A stretch of DNA of 42,554 nt from a virus (taxonomy: Duplodnaviria; Heunggongvirae; Uroviricota; Caudoviricetes), in IMG/VR virus record IMGVR_UViG_2802429237_000001, positions 1 to 42,554 of that record; one strand, given 5' to 3'. Positions 1 to 15,429 of this stretch are shown here, piece after piece. The translations under genes were made by a program, and so were the position numbers. Below the pieces are notes generated by a model. That model made no database searches. It was not told where the DNA came from and saw only the letters and a list, made by a program, of their open reading frames with translations. How positions within the stretch are numbered: the first letter of the stretch is position 1; every line of letters starts with the position of its first letter.

Positions 1-342
1 ATGATGAAAAAAAGTATATTGGCGTTTTTGTTGCTCACCAGTTCCACAGCGGTGCTGGCGGCTCCTCAGGTGATTACCGTCAGCCGTTTTGAAATTGGCA
101 AAGACAAATGGGCGTTTAATCGCGAAGAAGTGATGTTGACATGCCGACCGGGTAATGCGCTGTATGTCATTAATCCCAGCACCCTGGTGCAATACCCTTT
201 GAACGATGTTGCGCAAAAAGAGGTTTCCAGCGGGAAGACTAAGGCCCAGCCTATTTCAGTGATCCAGATTGACGATCCCAACAAACCTGGTGAAAAAATG
301 AGCCTGACGCCATTTATAGAACGAGCTGAAAAACTCTGCTAA
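1..342 (+). CDS. yebY: Host periplasmic protein YebY (DUF2511-like), with signal peptide
   Basis: 113-aa ORF with N-terminal signal peptide ([20 protein letters not shown] then APQ); matches my recollection of enterobacterial YebY; lies outside the repeat-delimited prophage. Confidence 0.8.
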
Positions 343-370
343 TTACCTGAATTAGCCTTTTGATTTCCCA

Positions 371-410
371 AAAAAACGCCGGGGATCTTTTATCAGACCG
401 GGCGTTTTTT
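371..410. terminator. Hairpin flanked by A-run and T-run; likely bidirectional intrinsic terminator after yebY
   Basis: aaaaaacgccgggg...gaccgggcgtttttt: imperfect GC-rich stem with poly-A on the 5' side and poly-T on the 3' side. Confidence 0.5.
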
Positions 411-496
411 ACTTTTTAAAGGATGATAAAGACGCTTTTTTCTGACCACTTTTCATGTGGACTGGAAAACCTGGCGTCGTCATCTATTCTTAAAGG

Positions 497-599
497 GCAA
501 GGCAACTAAGCCTGCATTAATGCCAACTTTTAGCGCACGGCTCTCTCCCAAGAGCCATTTCCCTGGACCGAATACAGGAATCGTATTCGGTCTCTTTTT
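497..599 (+). ncRNA. sdsR: SdsR (RyeB) small RNA; its terminator hairpin carries the prophage att core
   Basis: gcaaggcaactaagcctgcattaatgcc...ccgaatacaggaatcgtattcggtctcttttt matches my memory of the ~104-nt SdsR sequence; ends in hairpin ccgaatac/gtattcgg plus U-tract; context between yebY and pphA is the known sdsR/ryeA locus. Recollection-based, not searched. Confidence 0.6.
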
Positions 600-600
600 A
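574..600. repeat. attL core: 27-bp direct repeat acaggaatcgtattcggtctcttttta
   Basis: Exact copy of 41533..41559; lies next to the integrase gene; flanking sequence diverges on both sides. Confidence 0.75.
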
Positions 601-631
601 ATTGTATTTAAAATCAACTAGTTGCAAACGT

Positions 632-651
632 TTCCCCGAAATTCCCCGAAA
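632..651. promoter_or_regulatory. Tandem repeat ttccccgaaa x2; candidate integrase arm-type binding sites
   Basis: ttccccgaaattccccgaaatttactcgaatttc between attL core and int stop; a related motif attcccgaaaatttc...actcgaaaaaaa occurs near attR at 41386..41420. Confidence 0.3.
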
Positions 652-730
652 TTTACTCGAATTTCTGTATTCCGGTCTTTTTTGGTTATATCACAACCAA
701 AATATATTTAACAATCCATTTACGTAAAAA

Positions 731-1807
731 TCAGAGCAGTAAGTACGTTTTTTCTCTATCATCAAGATACAGTTTTGTTGTCTTCTCCGATGTGTGGCCA
801 AGTAGACGTTGAGCAAATTCTTCTCCACAGGTTTCTTTGTACAGTCGTCCGGCCAGACTTCTGATCTCGTGAAAAGTTGGCGGATTTTCACTGAACTGGA
901 TACCCGATAATTTTCTGGCTGCGACAAATTTTTTTGTCAGGCCGTCCGGGTGAATGCTGCCGTCCGGGCTGTTTTTTCTGATCCCTGCACTGATTAGATA
1001 ATCCCCCCGACTTAGCAGTCGACACCGATCAATCACTGCTCCCAGCCGTAAACCAGCGACCGGAAGGCTGAGTGACAGGGGGATAGCAATCATCATTCCT
1101 GTCTTAATTTGCTTGATGTGGAGACGATCATCATAAATATCACTGAATCGCATATTCGTTATGTCTTCGCGACGTTGTCCTGTTACAAGGGCTAAGTCCA
1201 TAGCTAATGGGAACCATGCCGGAAGTTGGTCTGCTGCCTCCCTGATGTAGTTGTATGTCTTTAGTTTCAGCCGTTCTCTTGTAACTACTATTTTCGGTGC
1301 TCTTGTTGGCGTTACTGGATTTTGAGATATACGTCCTTCAACAATGGCTTCGCGGAACATATCAGATAACACAGAACGCATTGATCCTGCCATCGTGTTT
1401 TTCCCTCCTTCAATCCACAAATCAAGAAACTCGGCAATATGGCGAGTGGTTATTTCTGTCAGTAAAATCCCTCCTAATTTTTCTTTTATTGTTTCCAGTT
1501 GATTTACCCTAATTTTATAAGTATTTCTGGACACTTTTCTCCTTATAAGAATCGTTTTGTAACGTTCAATCCAGTCTGCCATAGTAAATGAGTCGACCCC
1601 TTTAAGTTTTTCAATTAAGGCAGCAGGAGAGTAGTTTTTGTATATATAATGATTTGCTTCAATTGCCTGCGCGATTGCATCTCTTCTTGAAATTTTACCT
1701 AGTGTAAATTCTTCTTTCGTCAGAGGGTTGCGCCAGTAATATGCTTTGTCCCTCCTTCGATATGTTAAGTTCCTAGGCAAATTGGGATCGTATTTTTTCC
1801 GCTGCAT
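731..1807 (-). CDS. int: Tyrosine recombinase, lambda Int-family prophage integrase
   Basis: 358-aa ORF adjacent to attL; C-terminal tyrosine-recombinase-like region (HEIRSLAGRLY...LLGHTSEKTTKLYLDD); position and length match Rac IntR. Confidence 0.9.
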   Translation of the reverse strand: MQRKKYDPNLPRNLTYRRRDKAYYWRNPLTKEEFTLGKISRRDAIAQAIEANHYIYKNYSPAALIEKLKGVDSFTMADWIERYKTILIRRKVSRNTYKIRVNQLETIKEKLGGILLTEITTRHIAEFLDLWIEGGKNTMAGSMRSVLSDMFREAIVEGRISQNPVTPTRAPKIVVTRERLKLKTYNYIREAADQLPAWFPLAMDLALVTGQRREDITNMRFSDIYDDRLHIKQIKTGMMIAIPLSLSLPVAGLRLGAVIDRCRLLSRGDYLISAGIRKNSPDGSIHPDGLTKKFVAARKLSGIQFSENPPTFHEIRSLAGRLYKETCGEEFAQRLLGHTSEKTTKLYLDDREKTYLLL

Positions 1808-2060
1808 GTTTTAACTTCTCCAGTAACGGACTGTCTCTCCCTTGTCGCCCATTAGGCTGATGGTGTGTTATATCGGTATCAACCTTATTTGGGTTGATAT
1901 AGAAAGCCTCCGGAACCACTCTGTAACTCCTCCCGTGTAGTTCAGGTGCAGGATAAATGTTTCCATTCCTTGCCCATCGTCGCAGCGTTGATATTGATGG
2001 TGGATTATCCGGATATCTGAGTTTTCCCCACGTTTTGAGTGTCACAAGATTCATTGCCAT
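1773..2060 (-). CDS. xis: Putative excisionase
   Basis: Small basic ORF immediately upstream of int and overlapping its start by 35 nt, the classic xis-int arrangement; start may be Met1 or Met3. Confidence 0.6.
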   Translation of the reverse strand: MAMNLVTLKTWGKLRYPDNPPSISTLRRWARNGNIYPAPELHGRSYRVVPEAFYINPNKVDTDITHHQPNGRQGRDSPLLEKLKHAAEKIRSQFA

Positions 2061-2076
2061 ACCTCTTACGATATGA

Positions 2077-2105
2077 CCGCCAGTAAATATACAGAATACT
2101 GGCGG
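2077..2105. promoter_or_regulatory. Perfect inverted repeat ccgccagta-N11-tactggcgg upstream of xis
   Basis: 9-bp perfect arms; sits 17 bp upstream of the xis start on the transcribed strand; operator-like or attenuator hairpin. Confidence 0.3.
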
Positions 2106-2160
2106 ACGTGATTGATTTTTAATAATCAGCTATGAAGTTCTAATTTGGATATAATGCAAC

Positions 2161-2349
2161 TCACGAGGACAGAAGTTTCTCGCAATTAAAATTTATCAGT
2201 TTTACTTTCTGCTCTCTGGAAACGCCTGCTTCTTTTTTCCCCGAGAGCATTTTTTCGCATTCCGATTTGGTTAACTTTGTTTTTGAGTACCTTGTCCAGT
2301 TAGTAGGAGTGCCACCTTCCTTTTCAATAGTGGCGGTAATTTTATACAT
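2161..2349 (-). CDS. Hypothetical small protein (Rac ydaC position)
   Basis: 62-aa ORF from ATG at 2349 with strong SD (tggaggtg) upstream; overlaps the last codons of lar. Confidence 0.5.
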   Translation of the reverse strand: MYKITATIEKEGGTPTNWTRYSKTKLTKSECEKMLSGKKEAGVSREQKVKLINFNCEKLLSS

Positions 2350-2551
2350 GAACACCTCCATTATTATTTCCAGTAGTTCGTTTATTCCATCTTTCGAGTG
2401 CTTCTTTTTCACTTCTACCATAGCCGGTTCGGGATTCGCATCCGTTACACTTCGCGCGGTAATATCCTGAAATGGCTTTCACCGTTACTGATGGACAACC
2501 ACAAAAAGGGCATGGTTTGACTTTTTCATACCGCATTGTCTTTTCTCTCAT
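2342..2551 (-). CDS. lar: Lar-family restriction alleviation protein (zinc ribbon)
   Basis: KPCPFCG...CNGCESRTG zinc-ribbon pattern typical of Lar/RalR; located upstream of recT as in Rac; start could instead be Met6 at 2536. Confidence 0.75.
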   Translation of the reverse strand: MREKTMRYEKVKPCPFCGCPSVTVKAISGYYRAKCNGCESRTGYGRSEKEALERWNKRTTGNNNGGVHV

Positions 2552-2599
2552 AAAATAAAATTTTGTGATGGCGGTGAGGCTACACCGCCAAAGTAAATA

Positions 2600-3703
2600 T
2601 CAGGAGCCGATATATTCTGGTTTCATATCTGTCAGTGTCGTTTTATACGCCTCATATAATTCACCCAGATGTGGCCGGGCAGCATTCAGCGTATTTTCCA
2701 GAGCAGTAAATTTTTGTTCTGCTTCTGGATCACCTGATGAAGGAAGGTCATTTATCATCTTCTCGATACTGGCAATAGCATTGAGACGGTGATGACGCCG
2801 AACCACTTTTCCTTTAAGCTCGGCAAAGAATTCGCCGATCTGGTTTTTCTGATCCTCTATCTCTTGGCGTAATGCAGTGGTTTCCTCAGTCGTGGCCGCG
2901 CTTTCGACACGCTGCCGGAATTCATCAATCCACGCTTCGTCAATACGCTGTTCGATGGCTTCTGTTCGCTGCTCGCTTACCTCGCTATAATTCTGTACCG
3001 GCACAGGATTGATGATTTTTTCCTGTGGCTCTTCCAGTTCGTCCGGGGTATACACGCCCAGGATGACGTCAGGACAATAAAGGCGAGCCCAGTATTTCAA
3101 CGCCAGATAGGCGAGCTGTTGTTTCGGGTTTGAGGTCCATAAAGGAGAATTACGCGTAATCACGCTGGAAAGAAACACCGGTTCTCCCCAGGTAATCTCA
3201 CTTTCACCGCGAAGAACTGCACCAACTCGAACTGAGAGACCATACTCATCTTCACTGGTCCAACATGGGATCGTTTCTTTTTTCTCATAGATTCCGCCTC
3301 CTTTGGCCGTTTTCTTAACGGTCTCCACTCGGGTGCGAGAGCATTTCTCCCAGTCTCCCTCGTACTTGTAATGGAAGCGGCCTACAATTGCACTTGAGCT
3401 AGAGATCACAGCGTTAACCAGTTGTGCTTCATAACCCAGAACTCCGTTTACCAGGTGTGTTTTCTGAGCCACAGCGTAGGGGTTCATGCCCCATTGCATG
3501 GCTTGCATGATGATTGCCATGCAGTCGGCAGGATTTCCGCGAAGGTGATCGGGAACTGTGACGGTGGCCTGTGCCATCAAGCCGGCTACTGCCTGAAGTT
3601 GCGTCAACGCCTGAACGTTAAAAATAGTGTTACTGGCAGAAATGGTATTTGGTGTCTGCTCTGTCGTGATGATATTGGTATTTTGCATGGTCAGGTTCTC
3701 CAT
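2600..3703 (-). CDS. recT: RecT-family single-strand annealing recombinase
   Basis: 367 aa; region GNPADCMAIIMQAMQWGMNPYAVAQKTHLVNGVLGYEAQL resembles RecT; start overlaps the recE stop by one base. Confidence 0.85.
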   Translation of the reverse strand: MENLTMQNTNIITTEQTPNTISASNTIFNVQALTQLQAVAGLMAQATVTVPDHLRGNPADCMAIIMQAMQWGMNPYAVAQKTHLVNGVLGYEAQLVNAVISSSSAIVGRFHYKYEGDWEKCSRTRVETVKKTAKGGGIYEKKETIPCWTSEDEYGLSVRVGAVLRGESEITWGEPVFLSSVITRNSPLWTSNPKQQLAYLALKYWARLYCPDVILGVYTPDELEEPQEKIINPVPVQNYSEVSEQRTEAIEQRIDEAWIDEFRQRVESAATTEETTALRQEIEDQKNQIGEFFAELKGKVVRRHHRLNAIASIEKMINDLPSSGDPEAEQKFTALENTLNAARPHLGELYEAYKTTLTDMKPEYIGS

Positions 3704-6700
3704 TAAGCCAGATGCAGTGCTTCAAGACGACGAAGATCAAAGTCGTTTAATTCGTCGGTGTAACTTTCGGTAATCGGTGCTGGCCAGTTGTTTGTCTCCA
3801 GGGCTTCGTTTATCTGGCGTAGCGTCCGGCGATATTCCTGTCGACCAAGTTCCAGGAGTTCCTGCGAGGCTTCCACGACTGCCACCCAGTGATAGCCAGC
3901 ATCTTTGTTGACGAAGATCCAGAAAAATTTGTCCAGGTTTGCCACATCGCAATACATTGCGGCGCTGAGGTGATAATCACGCTCAATAATTTCACGGTGC
4001 AGGCGATCTTTAAGTCGTTCCTGTCGCACATAACCGAGGCTGACTGACTTCACGTCAGCGCAAATGCTTTCGTATGGCAGCCGGATTTCGATATCAGGAC
4101 GGACCCTGATTTCCAGCCCGGTTTCTTCATCAAACCCGAAATAGCTGATTTCAGATTTGCGATCCGGGTGGTTGAGTAGCCTTGCTGCATCGGTATTGTT
4201 TTGCAGTGCCGCGTGAATATTTTTTGCCTGTTCATACATATCCGGACTGATAAACGTTTTCCCGGCATTTTCTTCTTGCTGGCGTTTTTGCCAGTCCTCC
4301 AGTGTCACCAGTTCCGGGCGAATTTTCCGTGCGATTTCGGTTAATTGCTCTTTTGTGCCACTGATGTTGTAAGGCAAAGATTTAGCACGTTCTTTTTTTG
4401 CCAGTTCTGGGTCTACAGTTTCAATTTGATCCAGAAGCTGCTCCCGTGCTCCACTGGTTTTCAACAGAGGAGGGAGGCTTGCGTTGTATTCTTTAATACA
4501 GGCTTTCATTGCTGATGCTGTGTGTTTTTCCCCCTCAGGAATACGCCGAAATTCCACCGGAAGCGAACCGTAAAGGATGCCTGTTTCTTCGGCCCCGGCA
4601 CTTACAGACAGTGGCTGTATAAGAGTGCTGTTGTAGCTTTCGATCCACTCTTTCATCTGCTCTGGTGTCATCAGTGCTGGCAGACTGGCATTGTGTTTTT
4701 TAATGATGGCGATCAGTTCGCTAGAAGTAGTAACCACATATTCAGGAACCGGTACCGGAATGGCATATTCATCAGCGAATTTATCCGTTTCCAGAACATA
4801 GCTGTGAATGATCCGCCCACGCAGCAGTGCATCACTTTCCTCACTCGGAATAGTTCCGGCAATGTGCCGTCCGTGGTAATACATCAGGCTGATACGAGCA
4901 TCCTTCAGCATTGTGCTGCTTATTCCATTGGCAGAGTGATAAACCTCGTTTGGGAGGTTTTCATAGCGGCCTGGTTCGAAATATGATGGCCACATGATTT
5001 CAGTTGCTACAGGAGCTGACGCTTCACCAGTTTCATCACTGCAATTGTGATGCGAATCGCTGCCAGCGTTCTCCTTGTGCAGAGGTTCAGTGCCTTCCAT
5101 TTCCTCCGGATCTTTTTCCAGAGATTCATCCAGATTTTCTTCATTAAAGGTTTCCTGATACGTTGCGTCGCCCATTACCGCACCACAGTCGGGGCAGCTA
5201 TCCCCACCAGTCTGACCGCAGGCATTGCAGACTTTTTTCGGTTCCTGTTGCACTACTGGCTCAGGTTGTTTCACATCCGGGCTAGTTTTTTCAGTTTCTG
5301 GCGTGTTTTGTTCCGTTTCTGGCTGGTTCTGGTTCACAGAATCGCGAGTCTGGATCCCCTTAACCCATTTCGGATCATTCGGGTCGCTAATCCCTTCAAC
5401 AAATTCTCCACGCGAGGCAGCCAGCAATTTGTCTGCATCGACAGGATTTTTGGGCGGAATGTTTTTCCGGGCTTCATGGAGTTCTGCCCGCAGTTTCTGA
5501 TATTTCGCATCAACAGGGTTTACCTGTGACTGAGCATCCAGCGGCTGCGTGTCCTGATGATGTTCAGTTGCGTCCGGTTCCATTGTTTCAGCCGTTGCCT
5601 GTTCATCTGCCATTGCGCAAGATGGTTGCGGTTTTTCTTCATCATTCGGTTTTTCTTCTTCTGTTACACGCTGCGGCATCGGAGCAGAGGAGCGACCGCA
5701 GGCAATATCCACGATTTCCGGATCAGGGTTGGCATGATCGGTTTCAGTCAGTACTTTGTTCAGATATTCAGTGACGTGTGCGGGGATAACCTCGATACCA
5801 ATTGGTGCTTCTTTCACGGCCGCAACCACGATGGCACGGGAATAATCCAGCCCACCAGGCATGGCGATGAATTTGTCGCGGAAAACAGAAAAGGGTGGTT
5901 TATTTTCAGCGATAATTTCCTCGACACGTTTAGCGTGTGCTGGATGAAGGTTATAAATGTCCACGTCCATTGAACGGGCCAGTACGCCAGTGGCTACGTC
6001 GCGCGCCAGCGACGTCAGATCGTGAACGAAACCTTCGCCGCGGTCGGTAAGAATGCCGCCACCGGCATTTGCGCCCGACGGGGTGCGATTGATTTCAGAT
6101 ACGCAATTTCCTTTTGCCCACTCTTTTATCAGTAAGCTCTGATCCAGGTAATCGGTTTTCATCCAGGTGGATATGAACTTGTTGTATTCAGCCGGACTGA
6201 TGCGGCGAGTTTCTGCGTGAGTGAATGCCTTTTCCACGGAGCGCGCCAGTCTTTCCAGATGGTGGTTTGTCAGTTTATCCAGCTCAGGATGTGAGCGCAC
6301 CGCTGTAAGCATGCTCTGGAGGTTATGCTCCTCCATATCCATCTCCAGGCGGATCACGTCCTGGCGTTGTTCCGGTGTGGCGTGATGTTTGTATTTCCCA
6401 TTGAACTCCTGACCAAAGAAGTAGAGGTGCAGGAAACGATGAGCAAGACTGAGAGTGGCGACGGATACTTCGCAATCCTGGCAATCCCCGTGAGCGTCTG
6501 CCCGTGTGTTTTCTTCCTGGCCTCCCGCCGGTTCTTCGGTTTCCGGTGCATCCTCCTGATGGTGAACGTCGTCTGGCGCTGCTCCCGGTTTTAGTTCCCA
6601 GGTCATGGAGTCTTTGCTGAGTTGATAGCGTTCACTCCAGGTAAAATCGATCTCACCTTCAGGGGGAAGGTCATTAACGACAGGAAAATTCGTGGCAACA

Positions 6701-6858
6701 GGTTTAAAATAGCTGCTCAGTTTTTTACCTGACTTAACGAGCAGGTAGTCCAGAGTGGTGCTGGTCGATTCAAAATCGTCGTTTGCCCACAGGACGACGT
6801 CAGGTTCACCGGATGATTTTTTCGCTTTCCGTAACAGGAAGAGTGGTTTTGTGCTCAT
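3703..6858 (-). CDS. recE: Exodeoxyribonuclease VIII (RecE)-like protein, extended form (1051 aa)
   Basis: Directly upstream of recT; C-terminal region with PD-(D/E)xK-like RecE nuclease segment ([21 protein letters not shown]...ICADVKSV); central acidic low-complexity linker and [16 protein letters not shown] zinc-ribbon-like motif. Confidence 0.75.
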
Positions 6859-6928
6859 TGTTTTTTAACCTCAACTCAGATTAAAATTACTGCGAGTGAT
6901 GAATAAATGTCCCAGGTTCTTCACTCAG

Positions 6929-6958
6929 GCCTGCACACTGTGCAGGCTTTCTTTTTTT
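6929..6958 (+). terminator. Intrinsic terminator on + strand inside the leftward early operon
   Basis: Perfect palindrome gcctgcacactgtgcaggc followed by tttcttttttt on the + strand. Confidence 0.4.
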
Positions 6959-6986
6959 CAGATTTCACCTTTTTATTTCATTGCAA

Positions 6987-7232
6987 TCAGATCTGCCAGA
7001 AATTCGGCTTTTTTTCTGCGGGCAGATTATTTCCGATGTAAACCAGGCACATTTTTGTGGCACCTTCAACAAGAGTTTTAAAGTTTCCTGATAGACCGTC
7101 GATATCAACCACAGTGAATGGGGTTTCTTTATTTTCTGTTTTAATTACGTAGCCAATATGCTTTCCTTCCAGGTAAACCTCGTGAACAATGTTATCAGTA
7201 GTTGCAACAGTGGCTTCATAATTGGTGTTCAT
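6987..7232 (-). CDS. Hypothetical early protein (Rac racC position)
   Basis: 81-aa ORF between recE and the ydaE-like gene on the same strand; no recognisable domain. Confidence 0.5.
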   Translation of the reverse strand: MNTNYEATVATTDNIVHEVYLEGKHIGYVIKTENKETPFTVVDIDGLSGNFKTLVEGATKMCLVYIGNNLPAEKKPNFWQI

Positions 7233-7306
7233 GTTTTTCTACTTAATTAAGGTTGAGCGAATCCCTGCCATTGCTGGCATAAATTCAGTTTCGAATAGTC
7301 AGTTAA

Positions 7307-7477
7307 TTAAAGTTCGTGTGCCATCTGGTCTTTTTCGGCACAATTTTTACTACAATATTTTTTCATTTCCGTCGTTGGGATAACTCCACGCATGAAATGA
7401 AGTGGTCTTTTAATACTTTTGCTTTCTTCAATTTCTTTATTGCAAAGGTGGTAAGCACATTTTATTTTCTTAGTCAT
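7307..7477 (-). CDS. ydaE: YdaE-like small zinc-binding protein
   Basis: 56-aa ORF not in the track (below 60 aa), translated by hand: [56 protein letters not shown]; C-x4-C...C-x3-C; start ATG overlaps the kilR stop (ATGA); same position and length as Rac ydaE. Confidence 0.6.
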   Translation of the reverse strand: MTKKIKCAYHLCNKEIEESKSIKRPLHFMRGVIPTTEMKKYCSKNCAEKDQMAHEL

Positions 7478-7698
7478 CACCATGACTCCGCCTTTACAGG
7501 TAAACCATCACGACCGAGGAAGACTTTAATCATGCAGTCAGTAATGCATGTTTTTGTGGTCAGGCTACGGATATAAAGTTTCCGCTTTTTAATATTATTT
7601 GCCGAGGCGATATATGTCCGACCTTCATGAAGAACATAATCGCCAGGGGTCACGCACTGACGTGGTATTTCATCAGTTCCGAAGTGATGTGCAATCAT
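7477..7698 (-). CDS. kilR: KilR-like cell-division inhibitor
   Basis: 73 aa from ATG at 7698 with SD ggaga 6 nt upstream; length and position match Rac KilR; sequence [15 protein letters not shown]... is consistent with my recollection. Confidence 0.6.
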
Positions 7699-7755
7699 AA
7701 TTATCTCCATTTTTACAAATGAACTTTGTTGATGCGGTGCCTGGTGCCTCCAGGT

Positions 7756-7782
7756 GACGTTAACCAGTTAACAATTAACGTC
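7756..7782. promoter_or_regulatory. Inverted repeat gacgttaa-N11-ttaacgtc in the kilR leader region
   Basis: 8-bp perfect arms containing HpaI-like gttaac motifs, 60-85 bp upstream of kilR; operator or 5'-UTR hairpin. Confidence 0.3.
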
Positions 7783-7864
7783 GGATAATCCACCCATAAC
7801 ACTGATGCTTTTAACTGTTCCGCGTGCGCTTAGCCGCATTCACCGCATCACAAAATTCACTTTA

Positions 7865-7927
7865 AAAAGGGCAGACATCAGTCGAACTTCAAGAAAAAAA
7901 CTGATGCCGCCAGGACTACACACAGTA
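7865..7927 (-). ncRNA. Candidate DicF-like small RNA with intrinsic terminator
   Basis: Minus-strand sequence ...tcctggcggcatcagtttttttcttgaagttcgactgatgtctgccctttttaaa: hairpin plus U-tract; resembles my recollection of DicF (tttggcggtatcagtttt...gactgctctgccgcccttttt) in the ggcggNatcagtttt and gactgNtNtctgcc segments. No convincing ORF in this gap. Boundaries approximate. Confidence 0.3.
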
Positions 7928-8104
7928 GTGTTGTTATTCACAACCGGAAGCGCACGGTCGAAGAAATTTAACGACAAGCCTTCTAAGGGAAAAACACCTC
8001 CTCCGTGCGCTTTCGTGTTGTGTGCCTGTCTTTTTACCACTTCAGGCTCGGTGGTCTCGGCTATACCCCTACAGCGAGAATATTGAATTAATCCAATAAA
8101 TTGA

Positions 8105-8257
8105 TTAGCTGGTATTTTTGGCAAGCCAGCGACGTGCGCCAGCTTCGGTTTTAAACGTTTTGCTTTTGGTATACGTCATCGCGGTGAACGTGCCGTCCTG
8201 GTTGGGGAACACGCCGTATACCAGAGATTCGTTGTTGCCAAGATCGATAGTATCCAT
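8105..8257 (-). CDS. YdfK/YnaE-like small protein (DUF1391-like)
   Basis: 50-aa ORF translated by hand: MDTIDLGNNESLVYGVFPNQDGTFTAMTYTKSKTFKTEAGARRWLAKNTS; SD aggggaaa upstream; resembles the Qin/Rac cold-shock-associated YdfK/YnaE as I recall them. Confidence 0.55.
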   Translation of the reverse strand: MDTIDLGNNESLVYGVFPNQDGTFTAMTYTKSKTFKTEAGARRWLAKNTS

Positions 8258-8453
8258 GTTGACCTCATTTCCCCTTAACGCCGGGTGGCGGAACTAAAAC
8301 CTACAGCGCCGTGCTGTTCTTGATAGAAATATTAGTAACACGGATATTTTAAGTCAACAGTATGGCGTATGATATTTTTGATTTAGTAACTATGTAAATG
8401 TTTTTTCAAGGGAAAAATATTAGTTACACAGCTGATTTGCAGAAGTTATGGCA

Positions 8454-8486
8454 CAAAAAAAACCGACTAAGACGTCGGTTTTTTTG
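8454..8486. terminator. Bidirectional intrinsic terminator downstream of racR
   Basis: aaaaaaaaccgac-taagac-gtcggttttttt: 7-bp stem flanked by A-run and T-run. Confidence 0.6.
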
Positions 8487-8511
8487 TTGTGGATGGGGTA
8501 GTGAGTGGTGG

Positions 8512-8973
8512 CTACTGGTTACGTTTCTTTAGTGCCAGCATGTTCTCGAAGGCTTCCTCGTAGAGCTTGTTTAGTCCACGTAGCTGGTTAAGGAGTTTGG
8601 CTTTTTCTGACGCAGGTAGAATCTCGAAGAGGTTAAGTAACTCTGCCTGTTCTTCATTGACCAGCCTCCATCCTTTGCCTGAAAAGCTATCATCATAAGT
8701 ATCTGATGATCTTACATAATTCATTAAGTCTTTAAGGTCTTCTCGAATGTCCTCTGGTTTTACCTTTAACAGAGCCGCAAATTTTAGCGCAGCGTCGGTA
8801 TTTACCGGTATCTTGCCGTTCAGATACTGGCTAACGGTGCCTTGAGATTCGAACCCCAACAGCTCAGCCGCCAGCTCTTGAGTCAGCTTCAGCTCTTTTT
8901 TTCTTGCATTCCATGCGGCTTTTAAATTCTTGCTCGCTTCTGGAGTTGCAATCACTTCGCGTGTTTTTTTCAT
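8512..8973 (-). CDS. racR: RacR-like HTH (XRE-family) prophage repressor, no peptidase domain
   Basis: 153 aa; HTH segment LTQELAAELLGFESQGTVSQYLNGK; divergent from the cro-like gene; RacR-like size and position; no S24 peptidase C-terminal domain. Confidence 0.8.
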   Translation of the reverse strand: MKKTREVIATPEASKNLKAAWNARKKELKLTQELAAELLGFESQGTVSQYLNGKIPVNTDAALKFAALLKVKPEDIREDLKDLMNYVRSSDTYDDSFSGKGWRLVNEEQAELLNLFEILPASEKAKLLNQLRGLNKLYEEAFENMLALKKRNQ

Positions 8974-9080
8974 ACATAGAGTTTATTTGTTTTACCAATA
9001 TTATCAAAGATAGTCTGACTGTTGATCTTTAAAATTAGTGGGGCTAATATTTGCTCGAGGCATAACGTAGAAGGTTGGCT
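8974..9080. promoter_or_regulatory. Divergent promoter/operator region of the immunity switch
   Basis: 107-bp AT-rich gap between divergently oriented racR and ydaS-like genes; partial dyad tcaaagat...atctttaa. Confidence 0.5.
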
Positions 9081-9356
9081 ATGAACTTAAGAGACTATTT
9101 AAAAGAGAAACATATCACCCAGTTACAGTTTGGGAAGCTAACGGGTTTATCTCAGGTGCATGTAAGTCGAGTGCTGGGGGGCTATGAAAGATTCAGCCCT
9201 GAAAAAGCATTACGTGTTGCTGAAGTAACGAATTTCGAGGTTACACCTCATGAACTCCGGCCTGATATCTACCCGAATCCGACCGATGGTTTACCTGTTG
9301 GGTGTAAGGCTAACACACAAAATGCACAGGAGTTGATTCATGAAAATCAGGCATGA
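9081..9356 (+). CDS. ydaS: Cro/YdaS-like HTH protein
   Basis: 91 aa from ATG at 9081 (track start 9075 is TTG); SD aagg; HTH QLQFGKLTGLSQVHVSRVLGG; divergent from racR as in Rac. Confidence 0.7.
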   Translation: MNLRDYLKEKHITQLQFGKLTGLSQVHVSRVLGGYERFSPEKALRVAEVTNFEVTPHELRPDIYPNPTDGLPVGCKANTQNAQELIHENQA

Positions 9357-9762
9357 GCACATCGAATCAGTGTTGTTAGCCCTAGCCGCTGAAAAAGGGC
9401 AGGCGTGGGTCGCTAACGCAATTACTGAAGAATATCTGCGCCAGGGGGGCGGCGAATTGCCCCTGGTACCAGGCAAGGACTGGAATAATCAGCAGAACAT
9501 CTATCACCGTTGGTTAAAAGGTGAAACGGAAGCGCAAAGGGAAAAAATTCAGAAACTGATCCCTGCAATTCTGGCAATCCTTCCGCGCGAGCTGCGTCAC
9601 CGACTCTGCATCTTCGATACCTTGGAACGCCGTGCATTACTGGCGGCGCAGGAAGCGTTGAGTACGGCAATTGATGCGCATGATGATGCAGTCCAGGCCG
9701 TTTACCAGAAAGCGCATTTCAGCGGCGGCGGGTCTTCCGACGATTCTGTCATTGTTCATTAA
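9340..9762 (+). CDS. ydaT: YdaT-like protein (toxic partner in the RacR-controlled module)
   Basis: 140 aa, the same length as Rac YdaT; follows the ydaS-like gene with 17-nt overlap; SD caggag. Confidence 0.65.
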   Translation: MKIRHEHIESVLLALAAEKGQAWVANAITEEYLRQGGGELPLVPGKDWNNQQNIYHRWLKGETEAQREKIQKLIPAILAILPRELRHRLCIFDTLERRALLAAQEALSTAIDAHDDAVQAVYQKAHFSGGGSSDDSVIVH

Positions 9763-9774
9763 GCAAAAGTTTCC

Positions 9775-10632
9775 ATGCTGTTTGTGCTTATTCTAAGCCA
9801 CCGGGCAGCATCATACGGGGCAATTATGGCCGCATTACCATACATGCAACTGTACATAGCTGATTACCTGGCTGACACCATGCATTTGTCAGCAGAGGAG
9901 CACGGTGCGTATTTGTTGCTGATGTTCAATTACTGGCAAACAGGAAAGCCAATACCCAAAAACAGGCTGGCAAAAATTGCCCGTCTGACTAACGAGCGAT
10001 GGGCTGATGTTGAACCATCCTTGCGGGAGTTTTTTTGCGATAACGGCGAGGAATGGGTGCATCTTCGGATTGAGGAAGATCTGGCATCAGTCAGGGAAAA
10101 ATTAACCAAAAAATCAGCCGCAGGAAAAGCATCTGTTCAGGCCAGAAGAAGCAGAAAGAAAGCAGATGTTCAAACAAAACAAGAGAGAAATTTAACAGGT
10201 GTTCAAACAGATGTTGAAGTGGTGTTTGAACATGATGTCAACACAAAGGCAACTAATAAAGATACAGATAAAGATCTAAAAACAGATCCCCCCCTAAATC
10301 CCCCCCGGGGGAATCGAGGTGTCAAAAAGTTTGACCCTCTGGATATTGCTTTGCCGAACTGGATTTCTGTCTCGCTTTGGCGTGAGTGGGTTGAATTTCG
10401 CCAGGCATTGCGTAAACCGATTCGAACGGAGCAGGGCGCTAACGGGGCGATACGGGAGCTGGAAAAATTCCGCCAGCAGGGTTTTTCACCTGAGCAGGTG
10501 ATTCGACACAGCATCGCCAATGAATACCAGGGCTTGTTCGCGCCGAAAGGTGTTCGGCCTGAGACGTTGCTCCGACAGGTTAACACCGTCTCGTTGCCGG
10601 ACAGTGCGATCCCGCCAGGCTTCAGGGGGTAA
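9775..10632 (+). CDS. ydaU: YdaU-like replication protein (DUF1376-like)
   Basis: 285 aa, matching Rac YdaU length; N-terminal segment YMQLYIADYLADTMHLSAEEHGAYLLL; alternative start at ATG 9826 has a better SD. Confidence 0.7.
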   Translation: MLFVLILSHRAASYGAIMAALPYMQLYIADYLADTMHLSAEEHGAYLLLMFNYWQTGKPIPKNRLAKIARLTNERWADVEPSLREFFCDNGEEWVHLRIEEDLASVREKLTKKSAAGKASVQARRSRKKADVQTKQERNLTGVQTDVEVVFEHDVNTKATNKDTDKDLKTDPPLNPPRGNRGVKKFDPLDIALPNWISVSLWREWVEFRQALRKPIRTEQGANGAIRELEKFRQQGFSPEQVIRHSIANEYQGLFAPKGVRPETLLRQVNTVSLPDSAIPPGFRG

Positions 10633-10638
10633 GAGACC

Positions 10639-11385
10639 ATGAAAAATATTGCGACAGGCGGCGTTCTGGAGCGTATCCGCAGACTGACCCCACCACATGT
10701 AACTGCCCCATTCAGAACGGTTACGGAGTGGCGTGAGTGGCAACTTGCTGAAGGCCAGAAACGTTGCGAGGAGATCAACCGCCTGAATCGTCAGTTGCGG
10801 GTGGAAAAAATTCTGAATCGCTCTGGCATCCAGCCGTTGCACCGTAAATGCTCGTTTGCGAATTACCAGGTGCAGAACGACGGCCAGCGATACGCGTTAA
10901 GCCAGGCGAAATCCATCGCCGATGAACTGATGACCGGGTGTACAAATTTTGCGTTCAGCGGAAAACCTGGTACCGGGAAGAATCACTTAGCGGCAGCTAT
11001 CGGGAATCGCCTGCTGAAAGACGGTCAGACAGTGATTGTGGTTACCGTGGCTGATGTTATGAGCGCCCTGCACGCCAGCTATGACGACGGGCAGTCAGGC
11101 GAAAAATTTTTGCGGGAGCTGTGCGAAGTGGATCTGCTGGTTCTTGATGAAATTGGCATTCAGCGCGAGACGAAAAACGAGCAGGTGGTGCTGCACCAGA
11201 TTGTTGATCGCCGGACAGCGTCGATGCGCAGCGTGGGGATGCTGACAAACCTGAACTATGAGGCCATGAAAACATTGCTCGGCGAGCGGATTATGGATCG
11301 CATGACCATGAACGGCGGACGCTGGGTGAATTTTAACTGGGAGAGCTGGCGTCCGAATGTTGTCCAGCCAGGAATTGCGAAGTAA
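10639..11385 (+). CDS. ydaV: DnaC/IstB-like AAA+ helicase loader
   Basis: 248 aa; Walker [11 protein letters not shown] and Walker B LLVLDEIG; follows the replication initiator gene; matches Rac YdaV length. Confidence 0.85.
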
Positions 11386-11407
11386 TTTTTACCGGGAGGA
11401 AATTTTA

Positions 11408-12169
11408 ATGGAGACCGTTTTTGACGCACTGAAAGCAATGGGAAAAGCCACATCCATAGAACTTGCTGCGCGACTTGATATCAGTCGTGAAGAAGTGCTG
11501 AACGAACTATGGGAACTGAAAAAAGCTGGCTTCGTTGATAAAACCGCGTACACCTGGCGCGTGGCTGATAACAACGTTCGGCAGGAACAGCCAGCACTGG
11601 CAGAACAGCCGGAAGAAACCACCACAGCAACAGTAGCGAAAATCTCAGAGTGCGATTTAACCGCGACGATTGAACAACGCGGACCACAAACGGCTGATGA
11701 GCTGGCTACATTGTTTGGTACCACATCACGCAAAGTGGCTTCAACGCTGGCAATGGCAATCAGCAAAGGTCGTCTGATTCGCGTAAATCAGGGCGGTAAA
11801 TTTCGTTACTGCATACCGGGCGATAATTTACCAGCAGAGTCGAAAGCAGCATCGGTAGCGGAAACTGATGGTAAGGCCTTTCCTCAGCCCGCAGGTGTTG
11901 CGTTACCAGTACAGGAGGCTGCAACACAGGAAGAAATTAAAACAGAAACTGTGGCGGATATTGTGCAGTCGCTGCCATCGTTTACTGCAACGCGATCTGA
12001 TGATTTGATTTTGCCATCGCTGCATTTGGCAAACCGCGAACTGCGTCGGGCGAAAAATCATGTCCAGAAGTGGGAGCGTGTCTGCGCCGCGCTGCGTGAG
12101 TTGAACAAGCACAGGGATATTGTACGACAGATTACTGATTCTTCCCGCCATGTTGCATCGGAAAAGTGA
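11408..12169 (+). CDS. Hypothetical protein, N-terminal winged-helix-like region
   Basis: 253 aa from ATG at 11408 with SD gggagg; the track ORF starts earlier at 11357 but overlaps ydaV. Confidence 0.55.
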
Positions 12170-12184
12170 TTGCCGGAGGCGCTT

Positions 12185-12646
12185 ATGGCAAAAGTATTTA
12201 CACAAGAAGAGCGGGAAAAAATTAAGGGGAAGGTTGTTGAGCTCGTGCGCCAGAGTGGGCGCGAGACGTTACGACAACTGGAAGCTAAGACAGGTGCGAC
12301 AAGATATCTGATGAGTGTTCTTGCCAGAGAGCTGGTTGCCAGTGGCGATTTATACAACTCCGGCTACGGGTTATTTCCGTCTGAACAGGCACGTAAGGAC
12401 TGGATAAAGGCCCGCAAAAAGATGTCGAAAGCAGCAGTGAAAAAAAAGAGCGACCCGGACCTGGTTTATTCATTACCAGACGGAGAAATACGCCGCTATG
12501 ACAGGCGTCTGAACATAATCTGTCGCGAGTGTCGGAGGAGCGAAGCTATGCAGCGCGTACTGGCGTTTTACCAGAATGGTTTTCGAGAGATATTCGGTGA
12601 ACAGGTTATGCATGAGGGAAATCATGGCACTCAGGTCAGTGTGTAG
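12185..12646 (+). CDS. Hypothetical basic protein
   Basis: 153 aa from ATG at 12185 with SD ggagg (track start 12170 is TTG); conserved-looking C-terminus with CRECRR motif. Confidence 0.5.
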   Translation: MAKVFTQEEREKIKGKVVELVRQSGRETLRQLEAKTGATRYLMSVLARELVASGDLYNSGYGLFPSEQARKDWIKARKKMSKAAVKKKSDPDLVYSLPDGEIRRYDRRLNIICRECRRSEAMQRVLAFYQNGFREIFGEQVMHEGNHGTQVSV

Positions 12647-12882
12647 GCACGTTGACGGTAGAAAGCATATGGGGGATCGATCGTTCTAGTTATGCTGTAA
12701 GAGCGAAAGCGCAGGCGCTGGGTATCAACAGGATGTTACGGGGTGACTTTCACTTGAGCTAGTGGGATCAATTTTACTGTTGGGGTGGGGGGACGTTAAG
12801 TTGCTGACAATTTCGAAATGTTTTTGATAAAGGCAGCGATTTTCTTTGATGGAGGGGCTACAAAAAATTTTTCATGTGAAAT

Positions 12883-14049
12883 ATGATATCTGCGATGTTA
12901 TCAAATGTGAAAATATTTATGAATCTGCAAAAAAGAAGAAAAGTTCAAAAACTAAACTATCGCGGGCAAGTTTCGAAACTGAAGAGGGGGATATTTAATT
13001 CTCTGAAAAGCACGGATTGGGAAGGAGTAGAAAATGCGAAGAGAAAACTGGAATATTACAAACGCACTCGTAAGCTACGAGTCTCGAAGAAAAAGTTGAC
13101 AACAAGTAATAAAAGGGTGGTTTTTTCTGCTCCGATATCTATTAATTATTACAACGATCGTGATTTTGAAATCATGAATAAATTTTTAAATAATTTACGC
13201 GATTGCGTGTTGAAGAATAATCGTGTTTATATAGATTTTTCTTCAACTAAATATATAAGTGCAGCTGCTATGTTATCTTTTCTCGCTGAAGTTGATGTGC
13301 TTATTAAGAAAAGTGAATTTGGAGTAAATGCCATAGGGTTTTCACATCCGAAAGACAAGAAAATTGAAAGCATTTTGAATCAAGTCGGTTTCTATGATCT
13401 ATTAAGGAAACCTAAAAGAGAAACTGAAAGTTATGATGATGTGACTTTTTGGAAATATACATCAGGTTCTTGTTCTGAGCCTCTTTTAGCAAAAGAAATG
13501 ATGGTGGAAATAAAAAAAGAGTTAGAAAGAAAATCATCAAAAAAATTATACCGTGGCTTTACTGAGGCCATGTCTAATTCTGTCGAGCATGCTTATGTTG
13601 ATGATTTAATGCATACGGAAGATGACGAAACAGCTAAGTGGTGGACCTTTGCTGGCATACATGACAAAAATCTTACAGTGGTAATATGTGATAAAGGAGT
13701 GGGAATACCTTCAACATTGCCTAAAACACAAGGTGTAAGTGTGCTAATGAACATCTTCAAAAAACTTAGAGTTCCATTAGCAAATGTAAAGGATTCTACT
13801 TATATAAAGGCTTCCACGTTACTTCAGGAAACGAGGACTGGGGAGCTGAACCGAGGTAAAGGCTTGAATGATATCAAATCGGTAATCGATTCAATAGGTG
13901 ATGGTTTTATGGGGATTTTTTCATCAAAAGGGCGCTATATTTACAAAGGGAAAACTGGCATTATTAACGAAGTGCTTAGAGATTACAAAAGCTCTGTTAA
14001 TGGTACTATAATTGAATGGACAATTCCTTGTGAGGTGGAAACTGAGTAG
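12883..14049 (+). CDS. GHKL-family ATPase/serine-kinase-like protein (RsbW-like C-terminal domain) with Lys/Arg-rich N-terminus
   Basis: 388 aa; Bergerat-fold motifs: N-box EAMSNSVEHAY, G1 box ICDKGVGIP, G2 box NRGKGLNDIKS; N-terminal 75 residues highly basic; AT-rich coding sequence. Confidence 0.7.
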   Translation: MISAMLSNVKIFMNLQKRRKVQKLNYRGQVSKLKRGIFNSLKSTDWEGVENAKRKLEYYKRTRKLRVSKKKLTTSNKRVVFSAPISINYYNDRDFEIMNKFLNNLRDCVLKNNRVYIDFSSTKYISAAAMLSFLAEVDVLIKKSEFGVNAIGFSHPKDKKIESILNQVGFYDLLRKPKRETESYDDVTFWKYTSGSCSEPLLAKEMMVEIKKELERKSSKKLYRGFTEAMSNSVEHAYVDDLMHTEDDETAKWWTFAGIHDKNLTVVICDKGVGIPSTLPKTQGVSVLMNIFKKLRVPLANVKDSTYIKASTLLQETRTGELNRGKGLNDIKSVIDSIGDGFMGIFSSKGRYIYKGKTGIINEVLRDYKSSVNGTIIEWTIPCEVETE

Positions 14050-14050
14050 T

Positions 14051-14365
14051 ATGAAAATTATAAAAGTAGCCAGTCGTTATCCTTGCCCAGGACCTCGTTT
14101 TAAAAGATTGGGGCCCGCTTCTGGTGAGGAGTTTCGTGAGTGGGTAGAAAGAGAGCTTAAACATTCACCAGATCTAACAATAGACCTTGATGGAACGGAG
14201 GGGTATGGTTCTTCTTTCTTGGAGGAGTGCTTTGGCGGATTGATTAGGCGTGGCGTGAGTCCTGATAAGGTTAAAGGGATTAAATTTATCTCAGAAGAAG
14301 AACCTGAGTTAATTGACGAGATAAATGAATATATCGAGGACGCTATAAAGGTATCTCATGGCTAA
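14051..14365 (+). CDS. STAS-like domain protein (DUF4325-type)
   Basis: 104 aa; starts 2 nt after the upstream stop with SD gaggtgg; core LTIDLDGTEGYGSSFLEECFGGLIRRG resembles DUF4325/STAS-like proteins as I recall them. Confidence 0.65.
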   Translation: MKIIKVASRYPCPGPRFKRLGPASGEEFREWVERELKHSPDLTIDLDGTEGYGSSFLEECFGGLIRRGVSPDKVKGIKFISEEEPELIDEINEYIEDAIKVSHG

Positions 14366-14876
14366 TTCAAGTATCCAGGTCTGTACTTGGAGTGCAGACT
14401 TTTGGTGTAAGTTTTTTTCTTTGTTTAAAGATGAAAATCAGTATGTAACTTGGTTTTTAGTTTTAGTTGGATGGGGGATTACGGCATATATTGCTTATCT
14501 CCAAACCACAAAAAGTAGAGGAGATGCTATTAAAGATGCTCATAATGAATGGATCGGTGAGTTTAGACAAAAACTGGAGTTGCTTGAGGATTTTGCCTTA
14601 GAGTTCTGGGCTGAAGATAATAATAAAGAACCTACACTGGCGTTAGCAAAAATGAGTAGGGAGGTTAAGAGTTTAACTACTATCGCTAAAGAAATTGAAA
14701 GGGCCGGTGGTGAAAAATATAAGGCAAAATTGTTTAAGGAATTACGCCAAGCCATGACATATGATAGTGATGTTCACAACCGACCTCTAAGACCTGATTG
14801 TATGCAAATTGTTAGGATTAGAGAAACATGTGCAAGTTTGAGAAGTGCGTACGGGCGCAAAAGCTTGACTGAATAA
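14358..14876 (+). CDS. Single-pass membrane protein with coiled-coil-like C-terminal domain
   Basis: 172 aa; start overlaps the upstream stop (ATGGCTAA); one hydrophobic helix YVTWFLVLVGWGITAYIAYL (about residues 30-50); SD aaagg. Confidence 0.6.
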   Translation: MANSSIQVCTWSADFWCKFFSLFKDENQYVTWFLVLVGWGITAYIAYLQTTKSRGDAIKDAHNEWIGEFRQKLELLEDFALEFWAEDNNKEPTLALAKMSREVKSLTTIAKEIERAGGEKYKAKLFKELRQAMTYDSDVHNRPLRPDCMQIVRIRETCASLRSAYGRKSLTE

Positions 14877-15273
14877 CCTCATATTGCTGAGTAGCTGGTA
14901 CTGCATATTATTATGAAAACACATCGTGGTTTTTATATAAAAGCTGCTTATTATTAAGAGATCTGTTTTATGTTTTTGGCTAGTAAAATGTGATTCTTAA
15001 CTTAAATGTTCCCTTACACTAGATTTATAATATCATCGTGTGATTTATAAACTATGCATTAGTAATAATTAATTTTTCGGAAAAATAGTTAAGTAAAATT
15101 GCTGCGTGTGCTTGAGGCTATCTGCCTCGGGCATGAACACCAACGGCAGATAGAGAAAAGCCCAGTTAACATTACGCGTCCCGCAAGACGTTTAATATTA
15201 ATCTTAGGCCAATTTCATGCTAGACACATGGATGTTAGCCTCTTACGTGCCGAAAGGCAAGGAGAAGCAGGCT

Positions 15274-15429
15274 ATGAAGCAGCAAAAGGCGATGTTAGTC
15301 GCCCTGATCGTCATCTGTTTAACCGTCATTGTGACGGCACTGGTAACGAGGAAAGACCTCTGCGAGGTACGAATCCGAACCGGCCAGACGGAGGTCGCTG
15401 TCTTCACAGCTTACGAACCTGAGGAGTAA
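15274..15429 (+). CDS. hok: Hok/Gef-family type I toxin
   Basis: 51 aa MKQQKAMLVALIVICLTVIVTALVTRKDLCEVRIRTGQTEVAVFTAYEPEE; matches the Hok/HokD (RelF) pattern; in-frame upstream extension from 15217 may correspond to a mok-like leader. Confidence 0.8.
   Translation: MKQQKAMLVALIVICLTVIVTALVTRKDLCEVRIRTGQTEVAVFTAYEPEE

Follow-up and report, generated by a model that had tools for sequence, protein, structure and literature searches.

Bacteriophage lambda produces OOP, an antisense RNA of 77 nt that has its own promoter, pO, and its own terminator and lies in opposite orientation within the early rightward operon, where it overlaps the cII coding sequence at the 3' end and exerts its effect through RNase III. 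The RNA-OUT of IS10 is a stably folded antisense RNA of ~70 nt. Its promoter, pOUT, is directed against the gene under its control and extends over the 5' end of that gene, and the RNA pairs with the ribosome-binding site and the start codon of the transposase mRNA. A third RNA, RalA of the Rac prophage, has been described as an antitoxin that pairs with the ralR mRNA (PMC4041452). Here, we analyzed a hairpin with an adjoining T-run that is located between the racC-like gene and recE of a Rac-like prophage and is oriented against the genes on either side. The results indicate that the structure is a real plus-strand intrinsic terminator, most likely that of an unannotated cis-antisense sRNA.

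The window, i.e., the whole stretch of 42,554 nucleotides that was analyzed (IMG/VR record IMGVR_UViG_2802429237_000001), is a Rac-like lambdoid prophage inserted beside the sdsR/ryeA locus, and Rfam matches to SdsR/RyeA occur at 459-603. The features surrounding the hairpin are as follows:

731-1807, minus strand: long leftward ORF, an integrase by position; an integrase is annotated there in the related locus L001
2164-2421, minus strand: DUF1187 gene, overlapped by RalA on the plus strand
2165-2343, plus strand: RalA (Rfam RF02694 match), antitoxin sRNA on the strand opposite to the DUF1187 gene
2603-3703, minus strand: recT
3703-6858, minus strand: recE, exonuclease VIII, 1051 aa (Pfam Exonuc_VIII)
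6859-6986, not assigned to a strand: racC-recE spacer of 128 nt, containing the hairpin and the T-run
6987-7232, minus strand: racC-like ORF of 81 aa with a frameshift against K-12 RacC
7310-7483, minus strand: ydaE-like gene
8108-8257, minus strand: DUF1391 gene
8515-8973, minus strand: HTH repressor
9075-9759, plus strand: ydaS/ydaT-like genes

The leftward ORF at 731-1807 is only ~130 bp away from the convergent sRNA pair SdsR/RyeA, which suggests an integration of the element next to that locus; the similar prophage of L001, the closest E. coli match, adjoins ybhA/modC instead. Scanning the window with Rfam in gathering mode returned RalA, SraC/RyeA, SdsR and sok only, all of them outside the racC-recE spacer, with sok, the antitoxin RNA of a hok/sok module, at 15106-15279 on the plus strand. 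RecE comprises 1051 aa in the window compared to 866 aa in K-12 (as calculated from the K-12 CDS coordinates), and the middle part of the window protein has a high content of acidic residues, proline and glutamine.

Both neighbors of the hairpin, recE and the racC-like ORF, are encoded on the minus strand and thus run leftward, as had been stated in an earlier note on this DNA. The frameshift of the racC-like ORF against K-12 RacC (91 aa) is due to a run of seven A residues that replaces the run of eight on the sense strand at ~7010-7016. The corresponding run on the plus strand is T7, and the original racC frame meets a TAA at ~6972-6974 (window 6972-7017). Among the related loci this homopolymer occurs as A7, A8 or A9 in many independent contexts, which suggests either slippage-prone on/off switching of racC or homopolymer sequencing error. 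The ancestral racC stop codon is located at 6958-6960, so that the T-run directly abuts the end of racC. On the other side of the spacer, identical spacer and ribosome-binding site sequences are followed in the related loci by a downstream gene that starts either with MSTKPLFLL, which is recE as in K-12 and in the window (start codon at 6856-6858), or with MSTDKQVYPLYYEA / MNTDKQ. Two alternative gene starts behind an identical spacer place a mosaic boundary right at the start codon; the spacer types A and B introduced below were each found with both downstream genes.

The structure itself consists of two adjoining parts:

6927-6949, plus strand: terminator hairpin with an 8-bp palindromic core at 6929-6947, forming a 10-bp stem as RNA
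6948-6958, plus strand: T-tract (TTTCTTTTTTT), abutting the ancestral racC stop codon (tca, 6958-6960)

The earlier note had described a perfect palindrome followed by a T-run, which was borne out: GCCTGCAC-ACT-GTGCAGGC is a perfect 8-bp inverted repeat at 6929-6947 with a loop of 3 nt, and the sequence downstream of the stem at 6948-6959, TTTCTTTTTTTC, contains a run of seven T residues. In the plus-strand RNA the stem extends to 10 bp, of which six are G-C and one is G.U (6927-6949). The arrangement is that of an intrinsic terminator, i.e., a G+C-rich stem-loop followed by UUUCUUUUUUU on the transcribed plus strand. The plus-strand hairpin folds with -16.0 kcal/mol (z = -3.2 against dinucleotide shuffles). 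A simple terminator scan of positions 1-15000 yielded 16 sites compared to 16.0 in shuffled sequences and ranked the racC-recE hairpin first; as the number of sites equals that in the shuffles, matches of this kind are uninformative in general. When stricter criteria were applied (at least 8 perfect bp, at least 5 G-C, a loop of 3-8 nt and at least 7 T within 9 positions), the racC-recE hairpin was the sole match on both strands of the 42.5-kb window, while 0.017 sites per window are expected by chance according to first-order Markov simulations.

The Rac prophage of E. coli K-12 carries a hairpin at the same place directly behind the racC stop codon, AGCCTGCG-CCATA-CGCAGGCT with the tail ATTTCTTTC, which is referred to here as type B. 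Compared to the hairpin of the window (type A), it differs in the loop, shows a compensatory A-T to G-C change in the stem and is followed by a T-tract of its own, and the 40 nt on its recE side are strongly diverged. In the curated Term-seq data of MG1655 (Adams et al., 2021; PMC7815308, supplementary file 1), a plus-strand 3' end is placed at 1417486 and classified as 'antisense racC'. This position is entered three times in the file, which has one tab per growth condition, and two of the three entries give read counts of 185,664 and 146,140. It corresponds to position 8487 of our K-12 locus, L002, and is located 7 nt past the stem core (...GCAGGCUAUUUCU-3'), which is the canonical position for intrinsic termination. 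The same table gives 92,121 and 36,200 reads for Spot 42, 119,068 for SdsR, and 133,651 and 254,683 for SibA, while RalA and FnrS are absent from this supplementary file (PMC7815308). The read counts of the K-12 antisense 3' end are thus within the range of those of Spot 42, SdsR and SibA. A second data set, the TRS study, lists in two supplementary files a plus-strand terminus at 1417482-1417495 with 1417487 as the dominant position; the signal given in Supplementary Data 3 is 0.99, with rank 151 among all tested positions and an adjusted p of ~0 (PMC10687069).

Two independent data sets therefore place the in vivo 3' end of the K-12 homolog within the U-tract, 7-8 nt past the stem core. These mapped ends support the proposal of the earlier note that a terminator for rightward transcription is embedded in the leftward operon. 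The plus-strand 3' end that the note had named as its check was found in both data sets at the homologous K-12 site, i.e., for the type B hairpin. By analogy to K-12, the RNA 3' end in the window is predicted at ~6954-6957. The K-12 end already stands in two published supplementary tables and is there only an unnamed row: the MG1655 RefSeq record has no RNA gene at the site and lists only ralA and kilS in the region, text searches of the literature returned no description of an RNA at the racC-recE site, and the supplements of Ettwiller 2016 contain no coordinates in this region. At the level of RNA families, the element remained below every gathering threshold of Rfam 15, with best matches of 12-19 bits against 32-85 bits, all merely overlapping the hairpin. 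The Hfq RIL-seq-derived tables of Bar et al. 2021 contain no racC entry and thus give no sign of an Hfq-dependent trans-acting RNA; the U-tail of the K-12 RNA, UAUUUCU, is short. Two further 3' ends of the K-12 Rac prophage in the Term-seq data are on the minus strand, an 'orphan' end at 1419679, ~86 nt downstream of racR (69,560 reads; L002 ~10680), and an end at 1420148 inside racR (148,214 reads; L002 ~11149) (PMC7815308).

To gain a broader view of the hairpin, its relatives were compared. The racC-recE junction is present in about a third of the complete E. coli genomes (1,842 of 5,426), and 269 complete E. coli genomes carry the exact spacer type of the window. About 250 related loci yielded 13 distinct hairpin variants, which fall into three types, A (window), A' and B (K-12). 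A T-rich tract is present on the plus side of all 13 variants and a U-tract on the gene-sense side of none of the 13. RacC relatives in the genome collection are almost all from Escherichia or Shigella, and the phage records contributed only six near-identical matches, which precludes a deep covariation analysis; a second scan of viral contigs, anchored 3' of the hairpin, yielded no new stem variants. Three stem pairs are changed on both sides among the 13 variants. When scored on the plus strand, 96.9% of the pair cells are standard pairs, and all departures within the outer nine pairs are G.U wobbles; on the gene-sense strand 91.5% of the cells are paired, and the same nine cells become C.A or A.C mismatches. 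This asymmetry amounts to about five independent mutational events against one and is not significant by itself; it supports the mapped 3' end without standing alone. The predicted stabilities of the ~65-nt region point in the same direction for type A, in which the plus-strand fold is ~6 kcal/mol more stable than the sense fold, and for the stem-mutant lineage L100/L141/L187, in which it is favored by 9.5 kcal/mol. In type B both strands fold about equally well, and a type B stem mutant again favors the plus strand.

The variants also bear on the question of whether the leftward mRNA, rather than the plus-strand RNA, is the functional molecule. The hairpin behind the racC stop codon would then be an intercistronic stabilizer or processing element that shields the racC message from 3' exonucleases or tunes recE translation, and the plus-strand 3' end would be a by-product. 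The palindrome does fold on the sense strand (-14.5 kcal/mol, z = -3.7), its position coincides with the end of racC in every variant, and the sense spacer additionally forms a weak hairpin over the recE Shine-Dalgarno sequence; roles of the two strands are also not mutually exclusive. However, a sense U-tract is found in no variant, while the A-run 5' of the hairpin, which is the T-run on the plus strand, is kept in three diverged types. The stem substitutions are C.A mismatches on the sense RNA and G.U pairs on the plus RNA, and the sense folds are weaker by up to 9.5 kcal/mol. Stems of 8-10 bp are, moreover, generally too short for RNase III, and the abundant 3' end was mapped to the plus strand of a lysogen whose leftward operon is repressed. 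We therefore consider a sense-strand function as the main role of the hairpin improbable. The suggestion of the earlier note that the palindrome might be a processing site in the leftward transcript is disfavored for the same reasons, since the sense RNA lacks a U-tract throughout, and variants whose plus-strand helix is kept by G.U pairs have a broken sense helix. A bidirectional terminator was also rejected because the gene-sense side lacks a U-tract in every variant, as was a REP element or RNase III site, given stems of just 8-10 bp and no evident resemblance to REP. The weak A/U-rich hairpin that holds the recE Shine-Dalgarno sequence in the leftward mRNA (UUUUAAUCU / AGGUUAAAA) spans window positions 6865-6888.

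The palindrome might also act at the level of DNA, where it could bind a protein, form a cruciform or promote recombination at a mosaic boundary, or it might be an inverted repeat that arose by chance. The loop occurs in both orientations, as AGT and ACT in type A (window 6937-6939) and as TATGG and CCATA in type B (L002 8470-8474). Inversion of a loop with retention of the palindromic stem is a signature of template switching at a palindrome, and the junction lies near a mosaic boundary. Against this stand the low chance expectation of 0.017 such sites per window, the compensatory pair changes, the conserved T-tract and RNA 3' ends at the canonical distance from the stem. This explanation is largely refuted by the mapped RNA 3' end already, and we regard it as extremely improbable.

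A terminator raises the question of which transcript it ends. The region upstream was scanned with a position weight matrix (PWM) for sigma-70 promoters, and the resulting predictions, together with the folding of the RNA, are as follows:

6858-6887, plus strand: predicted sigma-70 promoter (PWM scan) with the -35 element TTGTTT at 6858-6863, an 18-nt spacer and the -10 element TAAAAT at 6882-6887
6894-6926, plus strand: upstream hairpin of the predicted antisense RNA (GAGTGATGAA...TTCTTCACTC), abutting the terminator hairpin
6894-6957, plus strand: predicted cis-antisense sRNA of ~60-65 nt, its 3' end based on the K-12 mapping and its 5' end on the promoter prediction

TTGTTT-N18-TAAAAT is the best PWM site within the upstream 630 nt in the window and in K-12 alike (L002 8387-8416), and is in the top 0.007% of all sites of the window. 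The -35 element agrees with the consensus only at TTG, and the spacer measures 18 nt. On the opposite strand the site overlaps the recE start codon (cat, 6856-6858) and the Shine-Dalgarno sequence (cctc, 6869-6872), and conservation of the hexamers is therefore confounded, as the overlapping translation initiation region of recE alone explains it. The segment 6865-6888, which in the leftward mRNA forms the weak hairpin around the Shine-Dalgarno sequence, holds, on the other strand, the -10 element and the spacer predicted for the antisense promoter. Weaker promoter-like sites occur farther upstream at 6682-6710 and 6617-6647.

From the best site, the antisense RNA is predicted to start at ~6894 (K-12 ~1417418-1417424). 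The resulting RNAs of the two spacer types would measure 64-65 nt. That of the window (64 nt) would consist of two adjacent hairpins with a folding energy of -26.8 kcal/mol (z = -4.6); its K-12 counterpart differs in sequence and has the same two-hairpin layout (-24.7 kcal/mol, z = -4.8). In the variants the stem of the upstream hairpin is kept by G.U pairs on the plus strand. Along its whole length the predicted RNA would be complementary to the racC-recE spacer, which is untranslated in the leftward mRNA; it would fit this spacer exactly and end shortly before the stop codon of racC. A further complementarity of at least 11 nt to it does not occur within the window, leaving the recE leader as its only evident partner; trans targets within the window were rejected on the same grounds. 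A small ORF on the plus-strand RNA was also dismissed, since in type A the frame stays open through the terminator, the 9-codon ORF of K-12 lacks a Shine-Dalgarno sequence, and neither is conserved between the types.

The terminator may, alternatively, be real and serve to stop longer, non-dedicated antisense transcripts that arise from spurious promoters in recE or recT or from attL-side or host promoters, thus acting as a pure insulator of racC, kil and the immunity region. The mapped plus-strand 3' end of the K-12 homolog agrees with this view, and the weaker promoter-like sites at 6682-6710 and 6617-6647 could provide such transcripts. However, the 3' end of K-12 is discrete and as abundant as those of known sRNAs, with read counts in the range of Spot 42, SdsR and SibA, unlike those of pervasive antisense transcripts. 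An untranslated antisense RNA of several hundred nt is normally stopped by Rho, and would thus be expected to end before it reaches such a site. The plus-strand RNAs encoded upstream end by themselves, with a terminator-like hairpin of SdsR at 565-593 and an end of the RalA match at 2343. In addition, the best promoter-like site is located just ~65 nt upstream of the terminator, and the sequence in between forms a hairpin that is preserved on the plus strand. Taken together, a role as a mere insulator appears unlikely, if less so than the alternatives above. This also applies to the suggestion of the earlier note that the terminator may block antisense transcription from the attL side or from host promoters, which agrees poorly with a 3' end as abundant as those of classic sRNAs and a promoter-like site so close by.

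We therefore favor, with rather better than even confidence, the explanation that the hairpin and T-run are a working Rho-independent terminator of the plus strand that most likely ends a short (~60-65 nt), constitutive cis-antisense RNA. The promoter, the 5' end and the length of this RNA, and its independence from a longer transcript, are predictions. According to this explanation, RNA polymerase would start at TTGTTT-N18-TAAAAT (6858-6887), on top of the ribosome-binding site and start codon of recE, and transcribe rightward through the racC-recE spacer, whereupon the first hairpin would form (6894-6926). The G+C-rich hairpin (6927-6949) would form next, and release of the RNA would follow in the U-tract, directly ahead of the racC stop codon. 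In this way the terminator would confine antisense transcription to the spacer and spare racC, the kil region and the immunity region. In the lysogen the antisense RNA would accumulate and could pair with the untranslated recE leader, to which it is perfectly complementary. Pairing, together with a convergent promoter placed on the recE translation start, may dampen recE expression from leaky or early leftward transcription. That the antisense RNA or the convergent promoter lowers recE expression is speculative. Rather than blocking stray transcription, the terminator probably serves to end a short, dedicated antisense RNA.

According to a preprint, RacC blocks a retron toxin, and the same retron is triggered by RecE (bioRxiv 10.1101/2020.06.22.160242). 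One might accordingly imagine that a constitutive, highly abundant spacer sRNA sets the RacC:RecE ratio and, together with its convergent promoter over the recE start, holds RecE down compared to RacC, so that retron-type abortive-infection defenses are not tripped, and that the types A and B represent alternative specificities; we consider this extension doubtful. Provided that the RNA serves as a dedicated antisense regulator, it would add a control point to the RecET recombination module and likewise to two genes whose products reportedly trigger and block retron defense. More generally, a control element between RacC and RecE could matter for the balance of blocker and trigger.

As a prophage regulatory RNA, an antisense RNA ended at this site is of an ordinary kind that has been overlooked. 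No bacterium is annotated more thoroughly than K-12, and yet an RNA with a 3' end at the level of Spot 42 and SdsR has been left unnamed between racC and recE. For annotation this implies that a terminator pointing 'backwards' in a phage operon can flag a hidden antisense gene. For practical use, the site offers a compact and efficient natural terminator.

Compared to the known systems, the predicted RNA is analogous to lambda OOP in being a short antisense RNA in a lambdoid early operon with a 'backwards' terminator, made in the lysogen and complementary to early mRNA. Unlike OOP, it would cover only the untranslated spacer upstream of recE; its promoter is a predicted one, and the two RNAs share no sequence similarity. 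With RalA it shares the prophage, the leftward operon, the plus strand and a terminator of its own, but it differs in locus and sequence, has no match to RF02694, and has no evident toxin partner. The RNA-OUT of IS10 may serve as a working analogy for a convergent, here predicted, promoter placed over the translation start of the target and for a short, stably folded antisense RNA. In contrast to RNA-OUT, the predicted RNA would leave the Shine-Dalgarno sequence of recE uncovered, starting ~20 nt upstream of it in the sense of the mRNA. The 'antisense racC' terminus of K-12, finally, is the direct homolog of the element, with the same position, a hairpin and T-tract and a plus-strand 3' end at 1417486/1417487; the two differ in that K-12 has the type B hairpin with a diverged upstream hairpin, and the window has type A.
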